A stretch of DNA of 64,000 nt from Escherichia coli (lineage in GTDB: Bacteria; Pseudomonadota; Gammaproteobacteria; Enterobacterales; Enterobacteriaceae). The stretch lies in NCBI RefSeq assembly GCF_030013205.1, contig NZ_CP122648.1. One strand, 5' to 3'. Below, one piece after another: positions 4,431-36,351 of the stretch. How positions within the stretch are numbered: position 1 is the first letter of the stretch; each line of letters starts with the position of its first letter. The position numbers and the translations under genes are program-made. The notes under the pieces were generated by a model, which was given only the letters and a program-made list of their open reading frames with translations, did no database searches and was not told the DNA's origin.

Positions 4431-5142
4431 GTGCACAGAAAACCCCCAGCTAGGCTGGGGGTTCCGGAAAGCTTTCAGCTTTGAGCCAGTTATTAAAACC
4501 CCTTTTGATTTGTTAAAACACCTTGCGGTCTGGCAACTGCAAGTGTCAAACAAGAAATCAAAAGGGGGTCCCAATGGGGAACGAAAAGAGCTTAGCGCAC
4601 ACCCGATGGAACTGTAAATATCACATAGTTTTTGCGCCAAAATACCGAAGACAGGTGTTCTACAGAGAGAAGCGTAGAGCAATAGGCAGTATTTTGAGAA
4701 AGCTGTGTGAGTGGAAAAGCGTACGGATTCTGGAAGCTGAATGCTGTGCAGATCATATCCATATGCTTGTGGAGATCCCGCCCAAAATGAGCGTATCCGG
4801 GTTTATGGGATATCTGAAAGGGAAAAGCAGTCTGATGCTTTACGAGCAGTTTGGTGATTTGAAATTCAAATACAGGAACAGGGAGTTCTGGTGCAGAGGG
4901 TACTACGTCGATACAGTGGGTAAGAACACGGCGAAGATACAGGATTACATAAAGCACCAGCTTGAAGAGGATAAAATGGGAGAGCAGTTATCGATTCCCT
5001 ATCCGGGCAGCCCGTTTACGGGCCGTAAGTAACGAAGTTGGATGCAAATGTCAGATCGTGTGCGCCTGTTAGGGCGCGGCTGGTAAGAGAGCCTTATAGG
5101 CGCATTTGAAAAACCTCCGGCTATGCCGGAGGATATTTATTT
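4431..5142 (+). mobile_element. IS200 copy 1 (IS200/IS605 family, tnpA only, ~712 bp)
   Basis: Near-identical (about 5 mismatches) to a second copy at 30213-30923; encodes a 152 aa HuH Y1 transposase; ends with hairpin cctccggctatgccggagg; boundaries +/- 5 bp. Confidence 0.85.
4574..5032 (+). CDS. tnpA: IS200 transposase TnpA (HuH Y1 transposase)
   Basis: MGNEKSLAHTRWNCKYHIVFAPKYRRQ... 152 aa with the conserved HxH motif (ADHIHML); start placed at the internal Met of the listed ORF. Confidence 0.9.
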   Translation: MGNEKSLAHTRWNCKYHIVFAPKYRRQVFYREKRRAIGSILRKLCEWKSVRILEAECCADHIHMLVEIPPKMSVSGFMGYLKGKSSLMLYEQFGDLKFKYRNREFWCRGYYVDTVGKNTAKIQDYIKHQLEEDKMGEQLSIPYPGSPFTGRK

Positions 5143-29208: not shown

Positions 29209-30153
29209 ATGCTAACATTTTTTATTGGCGATTTATTGCCTATTATCGTAATCATGCTGTTGGGTTATTTTAGCGGCAGACGAGAAACTTTTTCAGAAGA
29301 TCAAGCCCGGGCATTTAATAAACTGGTATTAAACTACGCTCTTCCTGCGGCCCTATTTGTTTCTATTACCCGGGCAAACAGGGAAATGATTTTTGCGGAC
29401 ACTCGCCTGACCCTTGTATCACTTGTGGTTATTGTCGGATGTTTCTTTTTCTCCTGGTTTGGTTGCTACAAATTTTTTAAACGTACTCATGCAGAAGCAG
29501 CAGTATGTGCATTAATTGCAGGTTCACCTACCATCGGATTCCTGGGATTTGCAGTTCTCGATCCTATTTATGGTGATTCCGTATCAACAGGTTTAGTTGT
29601 AGCAATTATTTCTATTATTGTTAACGCAATTACTATTCCTATTGGTCTGTATTTGCTGAATCCCTCCTCAGGAGCGGATGGTAAGAAGAATAGTAATCTG
29701 AGCGCATTAATTTCTGCGGCAAAGGAGCCAGTAGTATGGGCACCTGTTCTGGCAACGATCCTGGTGTTGGTTGGGGTAAAAATTCCGGCAGCATGGGACC
29801 CAACCTTTAATCTGATTGCGAAGGCTAACTCAGGGGTAGCGGTATTCGCTGCGGGGTTGACTCTGGCTGCACATAAATTCGAGTTCAGTGCCGAAATTGC
29901 TTATAACACCTTCCTGAAGCTAATTCTGATGCCACTGGCGCTGCTTCTCGTTGGTATGGCATGTCATTTGAACAGCGAACATTTGCAGATGATGGTACTG
30001 GCAGGCGCCTTACCGCCGGCATTCTCCGGAATCATTATTGCCAGCCGGTTTAATGTCTACACCCGCACTGGTACAGCGTCACTGGCTGTGAGCGTACTGG
30101 GCTTTGTCGTCACGGCTCCTTTGTGGATTTATGTCAGTCGACTGGTTTCATAA
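29209..30153 (+). CDS. yfdV: AEC-family transporter YfdV
   Basis: 314 aa polytopic membrane protein downstream of oxc. Confidence 0.85.
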
Positions 30154-30181
30154 TTAATCATGTTATTGATTTTACATAAAT

Positions 30182-30212
30182 GCCGAAGTGTCTTTTCACC
30201 TTCGGCTTTTTT
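30182..30212 (+). terminator. Rho-independent terminator of yfdV, immediately abutting the IS200 left end
   Basis: gccgaagtg-tctttt-caccttcggc hairpin followed by tttttt. Confidence 0.6.
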
Positions 30213-30923
30213 GTGCACAGAAAACCCCCAGCTAGGCTGGGGGTTCCGGAAAGCTTTCAGCTTTGAGCCAGTTATTAAAACCCCTTTTGATTTGTTAAAA
30301 CACCTTGCGGTCTGGCAACTGCAAGTGTCAAACAAGAAATCAAAAGGGGGTCCCAATGGGGAACGAAAAGAGCTTAGCGCACACCCGATGGAACTGTAAA
30401 TATCACATAGTTTTTGCGCCAAAATACCGAAGACAAGTGTTCTACAGAGAGAAGCGTAGAGCAATAGGCAGTATTTTGAGAAAGCTGTGTGAGTGGAAAA
30501 GCGTACGGATTCTTGAAGCTGAATGCTGTGCAGATCATATCCATATGCTTGTGGAGATCCCGCCCAAAATGAGCGTATCCGGCTTTATGGGATATCTGAA
30601 AGGGAAAAGCAGTCTGATGCTTTACGAGCAGTTTGGTGATTTGAAATTCAAATACAGGAACAGAGAGTTCTGGTGCAGAGGGTACTACGTCGATACGGTG
30701 GGTAAGAACACGGCGAAGATACAGGATTACATAAAGCACCAGCTTGAAGAGGATAAAATGGGAGAGCAGTTATCGATTCCCTATCCGGGCAGCCCGTTTA
30801 CGGGCCGTAAGTAACGAAGTTGGATGCAAATGTCAGATCGTGTGCGCCTGTTAGGGCGCGGCTGGTAAGAGAGCCTTATAGGCGCATTTGAAAAACCTCC
30901 GGCTATGCCGGAGGATATTTATT
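30213..30923 (+). mobile_element. IS200 copy 2 (same orientation as copy 1)
   Basis: About 99% identical to 4431-5142; same start (gtgcacagaaaaccccc) and end (ggaggatatttatt); flanks differ on both sides. Confidence 0.85.
30356..30814 (+). CDS. tnpA: IS200 transposase TnpA
   Basis: Protein identical to the copy at 4574-5032. Confidence 0.9.
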   Translation: MGNEKSLAHTRWNCKYHIVFAPKYRRQVFYREKRRAIGSILRKLCEWKSVRILEAECCADHIHMLVEIPPKMSVSGFMGYLKGKSSLMLYEQFGDLKFKYRNREFWCRGYYVDTVGKNTAKIQDYIKHQLEEDKMGEQLSIPYPGSPFTGRK

Positions 30924-30937
30924 CAAGGCATAAGCAA

Positions 30938-32083
30938 ATGACAAATAATGAATGCAAAGGGCCGTTTGAAGGCTTATTAGTTATCGATATGACACATGTC
31001 CTTAATGGACCTTTCGGAACTCAACTTCTTTGTAATATGGGCGCAAGGGTAATTAAAGTTGAGCCGCCGGGTCATGGTGATGATACCCGCACATTTGGTC
31101 CCTATGTGGATGGACAGTCACTCTATTACAGTTTTATTAATCATGGCAAAGAGAGTGTGGTTCTTGATTTAAAGAATGATCACGATAAAAGTATATTTAT
31201 AAATATGCTTAAACAAGCTGATGTATTAGCTGAGAATTTTCGCCCAGGTACAATGGAAAAACTGGGGTTTTCATGGGAAACGCTACAAGAAATCAACCCG
31301 CGTCTCATATATGCTTCATCGTCAGGTTTTGGGCATACCGGCCCGCTAAAAGATGCTCCTGCCTACGATACCATCATTCAGGCAATGAGCGGGATAATGA
31401 TGGAAACAGGGTACCCTGATGCTCCGCCAGTGCGCGTGGGTACCTCTCTTGCGGATTTATGTGGCGGTGTCTATTTATTCAGCGGAATAGTGAGTGCACT
31501 TTATGGCCGCGAAAAGAGCCAGAGAGGGGCGCATGTCGATATAGCGATGTTTGATGCCACGCTGAGTTTTCTGGAGCATGGTCTGATGGCATATATTGCG
31601 ACAGGGAAGTCACCACAACGCCTGGGAAATCGCCATCCCTACATGGCACCTTTTGATGTTTTTGATACTCAGGATAAGCCGATTACTATTTGTTGTGGTA
31701 ATGACAAGCTTTTTTCTGCGTTATGCCAGGCACTGGAGCTTACGGAACTGGTTAATGATCCCCGATTTAGCAGCAATATTTTACGCGTACAAAACCAGGC
31801 TATTCTTAAACAATATATTGAGCGAACGTTAAAAACGCAGGCAGCTGAAGTTTGGTTAGCCAAAATACATGAAGTTGGTGTGCCCGTCGCGCCGTTATTA
31901 AGTGTGGCTGAGGCCATTAATTTGCCACAAACTCAGGCGAGAAATATGTTGATTGAAGCCGGGGGAATAATGATGCCAGGTAATCCGATAAAAATCAGCG
32001 GCTGCGCGGACCCGCATGTTATGCCGGGAGCGGCAACGCTCGACCAGCATGGGGAACAAATTCGCCAGGAGTTCTCATCATAA
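30938..32083 (+). CDS. yfdE: Acetyl-CoA:oxalate CoA-transferase YfdE (family III CoA transferase)
   Basis: ORF 30905-32083 runs into the IS end; start placed at MTNNECKGPFEGLLVIDMTHVLNGPFG... (381 aa). Confidence 0.85.
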   Translation: MTNNECKGPFEGLLVIDMTHVLNGPFGTQLLCNMGARVIKVEPPGHGDDTRTFGPYVDGQSLYYSFINHGKESVVLDLKNDHDKSIFINMLKQADVLAENFRPGTMEKLGFSWETLQEINPRLIYASSSGFGHTGPLKDAPAYDTIIQAMSGIMMETGYPDAPPVRVGTSLADLCGGVYLFSGIVSALYGREKSQRGAHVDIAMFDATLSFLEHGLMAYIATGKSPQRLGNRHPYMAPFDVFDTQDKPITICCGNDKLFSALCQALELTELVNDPRFSSNILRVQNQAILKQYIERTLKTQAAEVWLAKIHEVGVPVAPLLSVAEAINLPQTQARNMLIEAGGIMMPGNPIKISGCADPHVMPGAATLDQHGEQIRQEFSS

Positions 32084-32138: not shown

Positions 32139-35100
32139 TTAGTCATTTTGTTGACAGAAAACAGCTATCTCCTGGTCCAGCTCTGCAATGTGTTCTTTAA
32201 CAGAGTTCAGCAACTTAAGAATTTCAGGCTTGCTGTCATCTGAAACGGGCGTTATTTCTAACTGATGGCTAAGATTAATCAACTTTTGCAAATTCAGGAT
32301 GTTAGCCGCACCGTGGATGCGATGAATACACTGATGGAAAGTTCTGTTATCGCCAGCTTCTAACGCATGAAACGCAGCGGGTAGATCTTTATGCGTTTCA
32401 TGCTGGAAAGTCATGAGAATCTCCTGCATCAGTTGTAGATCGTTCGCCGTATTATTTTTCAGGGCCTCGATATCAAGGTGGCGATACTGAGGTGCAATAG
32501 GCGCAACCTGGTGTAACTGACTTAAATGTGTTTTCATTACATCCAGGGTCAACGGTTTGAACAAACATAAGTTCATGCCGCAATTTAACCCTTTTTCACG
32601 TTCGTTAGCCTGTGCGTTGGCTGTAAGCCCCCAGATGGGTAAGGAAGAATTTTGCTCACGGAGTTTCCGAGTCAACTCAAAACCATCCATATTCGGCATA
32701 TTAACGTCAGTAATAAGCAGATCATAATGTTGCATACTGACTTTGTGTAGCGCTTGCACACCATCAGTGGCTTCATCAACATCATATCCTAATAGGTTTA
32801 GCTGGCGTTTGAGTAATAGCCTGTTGGTCGGATGATCATCCGCGATTAATATGCTCAACTTTTCAGGGAGTGTCATGGGTTGTTCTGCTTTTGCCTCGAC
32901 AGTCGCCACTTGTTGGGTAATTTCTACCGGGATTGTGATCGTAAATGTCGTTCCTATGCCTGGATGACTTTCTAATGACAAATCGCCCTGCATGTTTTTA
33001 ATTAATTCTTTGCAGATTATTAAGCCTAAACCAGAACCTGTTTGCTGACGACCTGCACTTGTTTGGCTATAACGTTTAAACAGTTGTTGTTGTTCTTCCT
33101 GTGATAATCCACTTCCAGAATCCATAATCGTCATTTTGATTACAGCGTGGTTGTCATCAATGTTAACCAGGGAGGTCGTAATTTTTACTGCACCCTCGGT
33201 GGTAAATTTGAGAGCATTGCTCAGTAAATTAGATAAGACCTGCTTAAACGCCTGAGGGTCGATCTTAACCAGGTAATGTTCAGGAAACGTACTGCTGCAA
33301 CTTAATGCGATCGATTTGCTTGCAGCAATCGCACCGAAAGAGTGACAAGTGTTCTGGACTAAAGTAGGGATGTCGACCCATTGTGGTTGAAGTTGATAGT
33401 TACCCGACTCAATTTTGTCGACATCAAGGATTTCACCAATTAAGCCGAGGAGTGATTGTCCGGTGGCGTAGGCAAGTGAAATCGCCTCCACCCGTTGCTC
33501 CTTGCTAAGACCAGAACCCGACAGAAGTTCCAGGAAGCCCATAATGGAGCTTATTGGTGTTCTTATTTCGTGACTCATTGTTGCCAGAAACTGACTTTTT
33601 GCGACAGTTGCATTGATCGCTTTATTTCTCTCTACTTCGAGAGCGTGAATTAAATCACGCGTCTCGGTAATATCTTGCCAACCACAAATATAAACAGCAT
33701 GATCGCTGGCTGGCAGATTGCATAATGTATGCCAGTGATTAATGCATCTTTTCTCGATGCCATTATCAATTTCAAATACCTGTGTGTATATTGTTCGATT
33801 TTCTTTCGTTTCTGCTGTGACTTCATGCGCATTAGAAAAAACATCTTTAAAGGGTGAGTCACTGTTTTCTAATGGTAACATTGCATTTTTGTAGTAATCC
33901 GCAGTGAAATAATGTTCAAAAGCACTATTATGACTAATGACATTACCTTGCCAGTTTACAACATAAGTTGGATTCGGTAAGGAATCCGAGAGTGCTTTTC
34001 GGAATGATATTTGGTTTTCTAAATCACCCTGAATGACTTTACGACGACGAACTGAGCGTAACAGGTAGAATCCCCATAAAAGGCTACTGCCAACTAATAA
34101 AACGGATAATGTCGTGACAATATAAAATTGCTCGCTATAGAGGTCCCATGTGTCAATGGTCACATTGGGCATTTTAATCCATTTTTCCGTCAGGCGCAGA
34201 ACTTCGCTTGGGGGAATTGCATTCAGTGCTTTATTAATAATATCCTTAAGTTCCGGTTCTCCGCGAGGAAAAGCGAACGAAAGCGATGCATTCGGAACGC
34301 CGGGAATAAGAAAATGATAAAGTTCATTAGGATAGTAATGGTCGATCATGTAACGTGAATTTAACTGTGTCGCGACCAGAGCATCAAGTTCGCCTTCTTT
34401 AACCTTGTGAAATGCAGCGCTTGCGTTATCGACTTTTATCCACTCTACCTCCGGATACATCTCTTTTAATTGCGAATGAAGCTCATAATAATAGGGAATG
34501 GCAACTTTCATTCCTTTTTTTAATGTTTGTTCACTGTCAGGCGCTTTTTGCATGACAAAAACGTAAGGCGTTGTTATGAAGGCTTCAGCAAATAAAACAT
34601 TATTTTCTCTATCTTCACTATAAATAGCGGCGGGCAATATATCCCATCCACCGGGGTTAAGCTGTGTCCCCGCATGAATATTGTGTGAAACGGTGATCGG
34701 AGAAAAATTTAAACCTGTTTGCAAGGTAATAATATTAAGAATATCACCCATCACGCCCCGAACTGAGCCAGTTTCATCTGTCATAGAATAGGGTGGCGAG
34801 TAAGGATTTTCCAGCACCTTTAAATCGGGATGCTGCTTAATCCACTGTTTTTCATGTTCAGTGAGTTCTAATGGTTTGTTCAGAAAGGCCAGGTTTCCTG
34901 TATCAAGCCAATTTTGTGATACTTCATAGCGAACTTCATTTGTTAAAGCATCAACAAATCGATTGAGTACTTCATTAAGAACGACTGAATCTTTTCTGGT
35001 TAAGAAAAAGTTATATTGACGCGGCGAGTTATAATATTTCACTACATTTAAGGAGTGAGTGAAATAGCGGGAAATCATACTGCTGGTAATAATGTTACTA

Positions 35101-35736: not shown

Positions 35737-36351
35737 TTAGCCGATTTTGTTACGTTGTGCGAATGTGTAAAGATCCATCAGTGATTTACATTCTAATTTT
35801 TCCATCAGGCGACTTTTATAAGTGCTGACAGTTTTGTTGCTGATGAACATTTTTTCCGCAATGTCATTATTATCCTTGCCATCAAGAATATATCGCATGA
35901 CACTAATTTCTTGTTTCGATAAGGAGTCGAGTTTTTGCTGGTCGGACGTTAAACTTCCAACAAACCGGTTGAGAGAGAAGGGGAAATAGCAGTAGCCATT
36001 TTTTGCAGCTTCAATAGCCGCAATGATATTGTTCATGCCTTCTTTTTTACTCACGAATCCATTAGCGCCAGCATCAGCACAATGTTTCCCGTAAAAATGG
36101 TCATTTTTAGCGGAGACGATAATAATAATTCCGCTATATTGGCGCTTCCTCAGCGTTTCTAACACCTGGATACCGTTAACTCCGGGGATATCGACATCAA
36201 TGATGACGATATCAGGTTTAAGTGTTTCCACCCGCTGAACGGCACTTCCCCCTTCAGTCAACTCCGCTAAGATTTCAATATCGTTTTTGATCAATAAATT
36301 ACGAATTGCTGCGATAGCAAGAGGATGGTCATCAATAATTATTGCGTTCAT
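35737..36351 (-). CDS. evgA: Response regulator EvgA (LuxR/NarL family)
   Basis: 204 aa, MNAIIIDDHPLAIAAIRNLL...; receiver plus LuxR HTH. Confidence 0.93.
   Translation of the reverse strand: MNAIIIDDHPLAIAAIRNLLIKNDIEILAELTEGGSAVQRVETLKPDIVIIDVDIPGVNGIQVLETLRKRQYSGIIIIVSAKNDHFYGKHCADAGANGFVSKKEGMNNIIAAIEAAKNGYCYFPFSLNRFVGSLTSDQQKLDSLSKQEISVMRYILDGKDNNDIAEKMFISNKTVSTYKSRLMEKLECKSLMDLYTFAQRNKIG

Follow-up and report, generated by a model that had tools for sequence, protein, structure and literature searches.

A complete copy of the insertion sequence IS200C separates yfdV from yfdE in the 64,000-nucleotide stretch of Escherichia coli DNA analysed here (the window). The element sits directly behind the T-run of a native hairpin that resembles an intrinsic terminator, and a spacer of exactly 14 nt separates its right end from the yfdE ATG (30938-30940). 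We consider it probable that this insertion on the native yfdV hairpin causes a further polar loss of yfdE expression and brings no new promoter. The gene order yfdX-frc-oxc-yfdV-[IS200]-yfdE, followed by the convergent evgS-evgA, was confirmed by the Pfam domains of all five products, by RefSeq and by synteny with K-12. The yfdXWUVE operon has been described previously (PMC3720670). The features of the region are as follows.

29209-30153, plus strand: yfdV, transporter of 314 amino acids (ORF; Pfam Mem_trans, E 2.4e-80; RefSeq)
30181-30212, plus strand: native intrinsic-terminator-like hairpin of yfdV, target of the insertion (GCCGAAG..CTTCGGC + TTTTTT, identical in K-12)
30213-30923, plus strand: IS200C insertion sequence, 711 bp (+/-2 nt), from the empty-site alignment with K-12
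30219-30224, plus strand: A-rich motif AGAAAA, candidate guide sequence, directly 5' of the left-end hairpin (palindrome)
30223-30245, plus strand: left-end hairpin, perfect over 10 bp, presumed TnpA recognition hairpin (palindrome, fold, STnc490 positions 1-23)
30277-30366, minus strand: predicted art200 antisense sRNA of about 90 nt, transferred from the published starts at IS nt 153/154 (PMC4513863)
30281-30349, plus strand: 5'UTR stem-loop that sequesters the Shine-Dalgarno (SD) site (palindrome; fold -36.7 kcal/mol, z -4.1; STnc490; PMC4513863)
30356-30814, plus strand: tnpA, intact, Y1 (HUH) transposase of 152 amino acids (Pfam Y1_Tnp, E 3.8e-38; WP_000526135.1)
30843-30886, plus strand: inner right-end hairpin (palindrome; fold -27 kcal/mol, z -4.1)
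30888-30923, plus strand: terminal right-end module of an A-tract, an 8-bp GC hairpin (30896-30914) and the tail ATATTTATT (terminator scan, fold)
30924-30937, plus strand: native yfdE leader of 14 nt, SD sequence AAGG at 30925-30928, same as K-12
30938-32083, plus strand: yfdE, 381 amino acids, intact in the window (Pfam CoA_transf_3, E 2e-114; annotation)

Insertion point of IS200C

Alignment of the window with the K-12 empty site placed the insert at 30213-30923. The empty site of K-12 MG1655 reads ...GCCGAAGTGTCTTTTCACCTTCGGCTTTTTT joined to CAAGGCATAAGCAAATG (yfdE), and at the same point the window reads ...CTTCGGCTTTTTT, then the element GTGCACAG...GGATATTTATT, then CAAGGCATAAGCAAATG. 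As TT closes the left flank and the IS alike, the boundary can be placed only to within 2 nt. The target site was not duplicated: TTTTTT is followed by CAAGG in K-12, and by the IS and then CAAGG in the window. The ribosome binding site and the start codon of yfdE were kept despite the insertion. This comparison bears out the preliminary description, which had named an IS200 between yfdV and yfdE at a spacing of 14 bp; the interval that it gave, 30213-30940, comprises the IS, the 14-nt spacer and the ATG. It had also stated that the element brings its own terminal hairpins, and these were located at both the left and the right end.

An in-frame ATG at 30905 lengthens the yfdE ORF into the IS. 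It was rejected as the start of an N-terminal extension of YfdE, as it has no SD sequence and lies within a hairpin, and the RefSeq start is 30938 in the intact genes.

Structure and class of the element

The element is an intact member of the IS200 group of the IS200/IS605 family and is already known: annotated IS200C copies are 100% identical to the region, and in 17 complete genomes the RefSeq annotation has a transposase of the IS200C family at the yfdV-yfdE junction. tnpA is the sole annotated gene in the 711-bp insert, tnpB/insQ is absent, and the remaining ORFs within the IS are overlapping or antisense frames that are unannotated in RefSeq. The Y1_Tnp match spans profile positions 2-121 of 121. 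Using phmmer, TnpA matched 2EC2 (4e-23) and the IS608 transposase 2A6M (4e-19). In these matches the HIH motif and the tyrosine of YxxxQ align; 2F4F and 2XM3 are further PDB relatives.

Terminal inverted repeats are absent (the ends read GTGCAC... and ...TTTATT), and subterminal hairpins are found at both ends instead. The left-end hairpin and the 5'UTR stem-loop match the published positions nt 12-34 and 69-138 (PMC4513863), and the hairpin at nt 12-34 is a published bidirectional terminator (PMC4513863, PMC5435999). Rfam family RF01405 (STnc490) was matched over its full length (146.4 bits, E 3.5e-31; gathering score 56). A chance match is of no concern because of this score and the 100% identity to annotated IS200C copies. 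At the other end, the terminal module is terminator-like on both strands in the terminator scan and resembles the hairpin and T-tract of the target. Weak Rfam matches to Mu-gpT-DE (32412-32464), to STnc490 on the minus strand (30147-30245) and to LSU_trypano_mito were far under their gathering scores and were discarded as chance.

A second IS200C copy lies in the window at 4431-5141. The two copies have five differences, which leave the encoded protein unchanged.

The native hairpin between yfdV and yfdE

The hairpin left of the element, GCCGAAG(UG)...(CAC)CUUCGGC followed by UUUUUU, folds with -16.2 kcal/mol (z -4.3). In IS-free strains 14 nt lie between the end of the hairpin with its T6 and the yfdE ATG, and the 100-bp empty site with both intact is present in 5377 of 5426 complete E. 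coli genomes. Owing to its bulged stem and long loop, this hairpin escaped a simple terminator scanner. It is not part of the element, as it occurs at the K-12 empty site and the sequence differs at every other IS200 locus. Nor is it a REP element: matches at other loci do not begin until some 20 nt ahead of the IS (query position 28-30), and they reflect similar terminator tails beside other IS200 copies.

As this terminator-like hairpin is already at the E. coli junction, yfdXWUVE is probably not uniformly transcribed. In K-12 at pH 5.8, yfdX, frc, yfdV and oxc were all among the top 20 induced genes, with Ribo-seq log2FC of 4.3-4.9, while yfdE was outside the top 20 (<3.33; Table 1 of PMC10746267). 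The absence of yfdE fits a pre-existing attenuator. No yfd genes were found in supplements of the same acid-stress paper. A yfdV 3' end was absent from the searchable supplement of a K-12 Term-seq study (PMC7815308), although this operon shows hardly any expression at neutral pH; the supplement does list a plus-strand 3' end antisense to yfdE at 2488340.

Terminators as targets of IS200

The choice of a terminator is the rule for this element. The left end of E. coli IS200 lies behind the T-run of a hairpin at all five sites examined, where five independent copies (yfdV, pdeA, amtB, exbD and ydgA) each adjoin a different terminator's T-run; four of these sites are between convergent genes. We then compared 118 distinct left flanks drawn from Yersinia, Vibrio, Mailhella, Bacillota and other genomes. 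A hairpin with a T-tract was present in 101 of them (86%) compared with 36 of 3000 random windows (1.2%), and positions -6, -5, -4, -2 and -1 were T in 96-116 of the 118. A hairpin plus T-tract is a general target rule of IS200, and an IS200 copy is a highly specific marker of an intrinsic terminator. The rule helps to predict landing sites, and whether the outcome is harmless or polar.

On this basis the insertion may be described as follows. The single-gene IS200C, mobilised by its Y1/HUH transposase via single-stranded DNA, probably entered the T-tract at the end of the yfdV hairpin in a forerunner of an E. coli lineage associated with pigs (O139:H1, ETEC). The T-run of a GC-rich hairpin is its normal target, with the left end adjoining the T-run in one orientation. 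The terminator-like hairpin chosen in this case lies within the EvgA-controlled yfdX-frc-oxc-yfdV-yfdE gene set, 14 nt 5' of yfdE. GC skew is positive on the plus strand, which places the top strand of the element on the lagging-strand template, as expected for the family.

Two likely causes of the preference may be suggested. One is that the A-rich sequence by the left-end hairpin pairs with the T-run. AGAAAA is complementary to the flanking T-run, and GAA at IS nt 8-10 is near-invariant (113-118 of 118 copies per position); by analogy with IS608 it is a candidate guide. The other is that the terminator would be similar to the element's own right end. Tandem copies in Y. pestis (L075 and L122) were inserted directly behind the terminal right-end module.

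We tentatively extend this to the whole group, as a possibility that we would not yet favour. IS200-group transposases might recognise an entire terminator on single-stranded DNA, a GC hairpin and a T-tract at fixed spacing that mimic the right end, a plain T-rich tetranucleotide being insufficient. They would then be 'terminator hunters' across phyla, and where the terminator is internal to an operon such an insertion might work as an additional, heritable attenuator, shutting down the distal gene and exposing it to decay.

Carriers and history of the insertion

The insertion was found in 17 of 5426 complete E. coli genomes. All 17 carriers are from swine or wild boar, being O139:H1 and ETEC from Europe, Korea and Japan. 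Its practical value is small. It is a clean lineage marker for this internationally spread porcine clone. The carrier genomes have 19-33 places with IS200.

The junctions are 100% identical in 14 genomes and 99.4% identical in 3 more. yfdE is intact and 100% conserved in 14 of the 17 (France, Belgium and Korea), so that decay is not obvious. In the other three, the Japanese isolates EC556, EC571 and EC581, yfdE has a frameshift at 31257, where an A5 run is shortened to A4. The frameshift may be an example of decay of the distal gene in a Japanese sub-lineage; it could also be a systematic sequencing error, as it lies in this A5 run and is common to three closely related assemblies.

The copy in the EC556 clade raises the question of whether the site was used twice, the three Japanese genomes having received a separate IS200C allele at the same nucleotide. 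Their copy has 5 differences from the window copy within 262 bp, compared with only 2 in the 8 kb upstream, and at these five sites it matches the pdeA-nupC allele exactly. These genomes also have about 33 IS200 places as against 19-23 in the other carriers, and the site and orientation specificity of IS200 makes re-use of the same nucleotide conceivable. However, the two groups have identical junctions, near-identical flanks and the same yfdE allele, while the closest IS-free genomes differ from the carriers at 3 yfdE sites. One gene-conversion tract between IS copies accounts for the five clustered changes in a single event, and an IS of any kind at this place in only 17 of 5426 genomes argues against a frequent hotspot. 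Two independent insertions are for these reasons doubtful.

Predicted effect on yfdE expression

Behind the native hairpin, IS200C would add two more stops in series, one at the left-end hairpin and one at the right-end hairpin, which has a T-rich tail. All upstream sequence is displaced 711 bp from yfdE. The left-end hairpin terminates about 85% of impinging transcripts in Salmonella (PMC5435999); the Salmonella literature is the source of this figure, and the present sequence is not, because in the sense direction the hairpin is trailed by UU only. When the IS right end and the native yfdV 3' region were scanned, no promoter-like site matching at least 9 of 12 positions was found upstream of yfdE, which would therefore depend on read-through. 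We infer that the left-end terminator and the terminator-like hairpin at the right end probably impose extra polarity on yfdE. Under acid induction its transcription would be further reduced, frc, oxc and yfdV would be unaffected, and no new promoter would arise. It had been suggested in the preliminary description that the IS may decouple yfdE from read-through transcription. That the added hairpins block read-through is plausible, but the separation probably predates the IS: with hairpin and T6 present in IS-free strains, the element would add to an existing attenuation point and not be its origin.

The insertion might instead be a neutral passenger, its location due to target preference only and yfdE expression essentially unchanged, either by efficient read-through of all three hairpins or because yfdE was already expressed too low to matter. 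IS200 usually lands at terminators with little harm, as at the four convergent sites above. YfdE is an acetyl-CoA:oxalate CoA-transferase, and its role in oxalate-induced acid tolerance was reported as only secondary (PMC3720670); the identical, intact yfdE of the 14 carriers also agrees with a neutral insertion. On the other hand, the left-end hairpin is a documented strong terminator, and IS200, found originally as a polar insertion, is classically polar (PMC4513863). Only 14 nt of native sequence are left before yfdE, so there is no proximal native promoter, and strong purifying selection on yfdE across E. coli (dN/dS 0.06; PMC5706723) argues that its expression matters. We regard an unchanged yfdE as unlikely. 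Whether YfdE, with its 'priming' part in oxalate catabolism, matters in the pig gut is the question for which these strains are a natural experiment.

Activation, by read-through from the tnpA promoter or by a weak hybrid promoter at the right end, would make yfdE constitutive and EvgA-independent. tnpA and yfdE are co-directional, the in-frame ATG at 30905 carries the yfdE ORF into the IS, and a -35-like TTGAAA (30888) is followed after 17 nt by GAGGAT, with a start that would fall just 5' of the yfdE SD sequence. Yet this best outward sigma-70-like match has 8 of 12 positions, which is under the scanner threshold and not commoner than in shuffled sequence, and it is buried in a stable hairpin, so that an outward promoter in the right end was rejected as the main effect. 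The tnpA promoter is intrinsically weak (PMC4513863) and tnpA is repressed at several levels (PMC4513863, PMC5435999), the right-end hairpin and T-rich tail should halt its transcripts, and an outward promoter is not described for IS200 in these two papers. A new promoter for yfdE, the other effect that had been proposed, is accordingly very improbable.

Comparison with known systems

Like IS200 from Salmonella enterica, IS200C belongs to a length class of 707-711 bp and has a single tnpA for a 152-amino-acid Y1 transposase. Both have the same left-end terminator hairpin, SD-sequestering stem-loop, art200 region and right-end hairpins, without inverted repeats or duplication. There are no structural differences; it is the location that is peculiar, a terminator-like hairpin before a co-directional gene of the same regulon and not the end of a transcription unit. 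In hisD984::IS200, the founding polar insertion of Salmonella, IS200 likewise separates a promoter from the genes distal to it, and the polarity was ascribed to the hairpins (PMC4513863). That insertion interrupts a coding sequence, whereas the copy before yfdE is intergenic, leaves the SD sequence as well as the start codon in place and stands behind an existing terminator-like hairpin.

IS1541 of Yersinia pestis and Y. pseudotuberculosis has the same left-end hairpin sequence and is placed behind a hairpin and T-run in about 55 Y. pestis flanks. Its insertion in the pheL-pheA attenuator is also at a terminator directly upstream of a structural gene (PMC3082878). It differs in host and IS variant, including the first 10 nt (GTGCCCAGAA versus GTGCACAGAA), and the pheA attenuator is a regulated terminator while no regulation is known for the yfdV hairpin.

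IS608 from Helicobacter pylori and ISDra2 are the mechanistic paradigm. They have in common with IS200C the Y1/HUH transposase (2A6M and 2XM3 are sequence relatives), the subterminal hairpins, insertion on the 3' side of a short, specific target that adjoins the left end, and a bias to the lagging-strand template, here seen as GC skew. On the 5' side of each hairpin foot there is a candidate guide motif, and by this likeness guide pairing may be expected for IS200C. The target of IS608 is the plain tetranucleotide TTAC. IS608 carries tnpB, whereas IS200C has none and targets a T-run joined to a hairpin. Group IIC bacterial introns also insert just past the stem-loop of Rho-independent terminators, which limits damage to the host (PMC7923331); their mechanism, by ribozyme and reverse transcriptase, is entirely different, and the likeness to IS200C is in niche only.

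Insertion of IS200C between yfdV and yfdE

Window positions 30100-31000 were aligned to the yfdV-yfdE junction of E. coli K-12 MG1655, whose empty site (the IS-free junction) reads ...GCCGAAGTGTCTTTTCACCTTCGGCTTTTTT|CAAGGCATAAGCAAATG. The window has K-12-identical left and right flanks with 711 bp between them, GTGCACAGAAAACCCCC...GGAGGATATTTATT, which places the insert at 30213-30923. This boundary is uncertain by up to 2 nt because the left flank ends in TT and so does the IS, and no target duplication was found at the insert in the comparison with the K-12 empty site. As the preliminary description had it, exactly 14 bp separate the IS200 from the start codon of yfdE; the interval given there, 30213-30940, comprises the IS, the 14-nt leader and the ATG. 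The neighbouring genes were also correctly named, since both the Pfam domains (YfdX; CoA_transf_3 for frc; three TPP-enzyme domains for oxc; Mem_trans for yfdV; CoA_transf_3 for the yfdE product, E 2e-114) and the RefSeq gene order (yfdX, frc, oxc, yfdV, yfdE, then convergent evgS-evgA) agree.

Features of the two IS200C sites in the window
29209-30153, yfdV
59 nt, native intergenic DNA between yfdV and the insert
30213-30923, IS200C insert, 711 bp
30223-30245, left-end hairpin, perfect 10-bp
30281-30349, long stem-loop burying the tnpA SD
30356-30814, tnpA (transposase gene), 152-aa product, sole protein of the insert
30843-30886 and 30896-30914, right-end hairpins
14 nt, native leader between the insert and the yfdE ATG
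30938, ATG of yfdE
4431-5141 (+), second intact IS200C, directly 3' of the pdeA terminator T-run, convergent with nupC

The insert is a complete IS200C, already annotated in public records, and has all the defining features of the IS200 group that are open to in silico testing. Its transposase covers the whole Pfam Y1_Tnp profile (E 3.8e-38). In addition it matches solved transposases of IS200-like elements, IS608 and ISDra2; the HUH motif (HIH) aligns between them, as does the YxxxQ motif with the catalytic tyrosine. A full-length hit to Rfam STnc490 covers the left end, at 146 bits (gathering score 56). The left-end hairpin and the stem-loop correspond to the published IS200 map, which has a terminator hairpin at nt 12-34, a 5'UTR stem-loop at nt 69-138, a tnpA start at about nt 40, and art200, on the antisense strand, from nt 153/154 (PMC4513863). 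The last right-end hairpin (30896-30914), with an A-tract on one side and ATATTTATT on the other, was terminator-like on both strands in a terminator scan. The Rfam STnc490 hit, at 30223-30346 (+), is on the sense strand (tnpA 5'UTR), whereas published work presents STnc490/art200 as antisense RNA of the left-end region, so Rfam and the published sRNA apparently disagree on the strand.

A native terminator-like hairpin as insertion target

The 32 nt to the left of the IS (30181-30212) are a GC-rich hairpin followed by TTTTTT (-16.2 kcal/mol, z -4.3), whose predicted fold has the shape of an intrinsic terminator. This hairpin is host DNA: it also stands at the K-12 empty site, where 14 nt separate its end from the yfdE ATG, and 5377 of 5426 complete E. 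coli genomes have the 100-bp empty site unbroken. The insertion point is exactly 3' of the last T of its T-run, and chance does not explain this placement. In E. coli, four further copies of IS200, following pdeA (in the window), amtB, exbD and ydgA, each adjoin the T-run of a different hairpin in like orientation.

A search for the left-end hairpin in one genome per species gave 120 loci, including Yersinia pestis IS1541 (an IS200-group element), Vibrio, Brenneria, Dickeya and several gut MAGs. A perfect-stem hairpin whose T-rich tail runs up to IS nt 1 was present in 101 of the 118 distinct left flanks (86%), against 36 of 3000 random windows (1.2%) drawn from the same loci; the 17 flanks failing the test had mostly bulged hairpins. 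T occupied positions -6, -5, -4, -2 and -1 in 96-116 of the 118 flanks. At two loci of Y. pestis NCTC5923 (L075, L122), IS1541/IS200 copies stand in tandem, the second directly 3' of the right-end hairpin and ATATTTATT of the first, so the IS200 right end (hairpin plus TTTATT) is itself an acceptable target. The rule is not new, since a statistical analysis in a preprint already reported the terminator-like signal 5' of ISs to be at its strongest in the case of IS200/IS605 (10.1101/2025.07.22.666184), though it is striking at nucleotide resolution.

The exact 23-nt left-end hairpin also occurred, frequently at contig ends, in very distant taxa (L010-L072), namely MAGs of Oxalobacter, Mailhella, Bacillota, Peptococcaceae, Saccharibacteria and Elusimicrobiaceae, and in Vibrio ruber, which points to either wide horizontal spread or some mis-binned contigs. 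The first 10 nt of the IS vary among variants (GTGAAACGAA, GTATAGAGAA, GGTTAAAAGAA).

In IS608, the paradigm of the family, each hairpin is preceded on its 5' side by a short guide sequence, and these guides base-pair with the cleavage sites. A-tracts lie 5' of both hairpin feet of the yfdE-site copy: AGAAAA (30219-30224, left) is complementary to the flanking T-run and GAAAAA (30890-30895, right) to the terminal TTTATT, and GAA at IS nt 8-10 is near-invariant among variants differing at nt 3-7. Guide pairing of the IS608 type by these A-tracts would yield a T-run target. Because the association with a hairpin is strict, the data suggest that the stem of the terminator, too, is read by the transposase, mimicking the IS right end. 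It is a tentative idea, and on balance an unlikely one, that IS200-group transposases recognise whole terminators in this way and so can silence distal genes of operons with internal terminators. The GC skew of the window's + strand is positive, which places the IS top strand on the lagging-strand template, as expected for the IS200/IS605 family.

Distribution and possible allele exchange

Of 5426 complete E. coli genomes, 17 had the left junction. The hosts of all 17 were swine or wild boar, and the strains, O139:H1 and ETEC, were isolated in France, Belgium, South Korea and Japan. Fourteen carriers are 100% identical to the window over the IS and yfdE; the nearest IS-free genomes have 3 differing sites in yfdE, and CFSAN018748 (swine, Denmark) has a plain empty site.

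The two IS200C copies of the window differ at five sites (IS nt 224, 302, 371, 452 and 485; 30436, 30514, 30583, 30664 and 30697 in the yfdE-site copy), which leave the transposase protein accession unchanged. In the Japanese carriers EC556, EC571 and EC581 (L006, L008, L009) the IS at the yfdE site agrees with the pdeA-nupC copy at all five, within host DNA almost identical to the window. Their copy may be a second insertion at the same nucleotide; one gene-conversion tract between IS200 copies is the simplest explanation. These three genomes also have in common a 1-bp deletion in yfdE (A5 to A4, placed at 31257 in the run at window 31253-31257), and RefSeq flags the gene as frameshifted. The frameshift deserves attention because purifying selection on yfdE is strong elsewhere, with a dN/dS of 0.06 (PMC5706723). 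Lying in a homopolymer, the change could be a shared sequencing artefact from a systematic error; it also fits relaxed selection following silencing, that is, real pseudogenisation downstream of the IS.

Consequences for yfdE expression

The native SD of yfdE (AAGG, 30925-30928), its start codon and the native terminator-like hairpin with its T6 are kept after the insertion, and all sequence 5' of the insertion is shifted 711 bp from the gene. Transcription into yfdE now has to cross three hairpins, compared with one in IS-free strains. In published work the IS200 left-end hairpin acts as a terminator in both directions and halts about 85% of the transcripts that run into it (PMC5435999); the promoter of tnpA is described as weak, and IS200 first came to light as a polar insertion (PMC4513863). 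A promoter scan of the IS right end and the yfdV 3' region found no + strand site scoring at least 9/12. The best candidates scored 8/12, one being TTGAAA-17-GAGGAT within the right-end hairpin. Therefore yfdE is most likely transcribed by read-through from upstream promoters that EvgA activates (PMC3720670).

In K-12 at pH 5.8, the 20 genes with the strongest induction include yfdX, frc, yfdV and oxc (Ribo-seq log2FC 4.28-4.89) and leave out yfdE (PMC10746267), so the log2FC of yfdE is below 3.33. This pattern is indirect support for attenuation of yfdE by the native hairpin already. Our best estimate is that the IS causes a further, several-fold polar drop of yfdE, leaves frc, oxc and yfdV unaffected and brings no new promoter. 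The proposal that the insertion decouples yfdE is thus reasonable and needs restating: the IS would reinforce a probable pre-existing attenuation point, which is itself the reason for its landing there. At four of the five E. coli sites examined the flanking genes are convergent; only at yfdE is the terminator directly followed by a co-directional gene, an unusual setting. IS1541 in the pheL-pheA attenuator of Yersinia is a comparable case (PMC3082878). Overall, the insertion is an ordinary event of an already-known kind, with a modest predicted regulatory consequence.

An ATG at 30905, within the right-end hairpin and in frame with yfdE, lengthens the ORF by 11 codons (30905-30937). PGAP begins the EC581 yfdE pseudogene at this ATG, which lacks an SD and is unlikely to be used. 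The supplementary table of a 3'-end-mapping study lists an RNA 3' end antisense to yfdE at K-12 NC_000913.3 2488340 (+) (PMC7815308), possibly reflecting read-through from evgS into convergent yfdE.

Other features of the window

The 3' region described covers 39.5-64 kb.

~1-900, insQ/TnpB gene, at the window start
1920-1995, tRNA-Ala(GGC), single copy in the window
~41.4-46.3 kb, csc sucrose-utilisation cluster, adjoined by a truncated dsdX
~46-56 kb, prophage remnants with IS1, gtr-type O-antigen modification genes and intS
~60.2-60.8 kb, MazEF-like toxin-antitoxin pair
up to the window end (64 kb), P2-like phage genes

The otherwise nearly identical K_EC180 chromosome has two tandem tRNA-Ala(GGC) genes, 115 bp apart. 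Relative to the window it has single-base deletions at 36043, 37201 and 38961 (evgA, emrK and emrY), genes that RefSeq flags as frameshifted in K_EC180; these are probably assembly errors, since the three ORFs are intact in the window.
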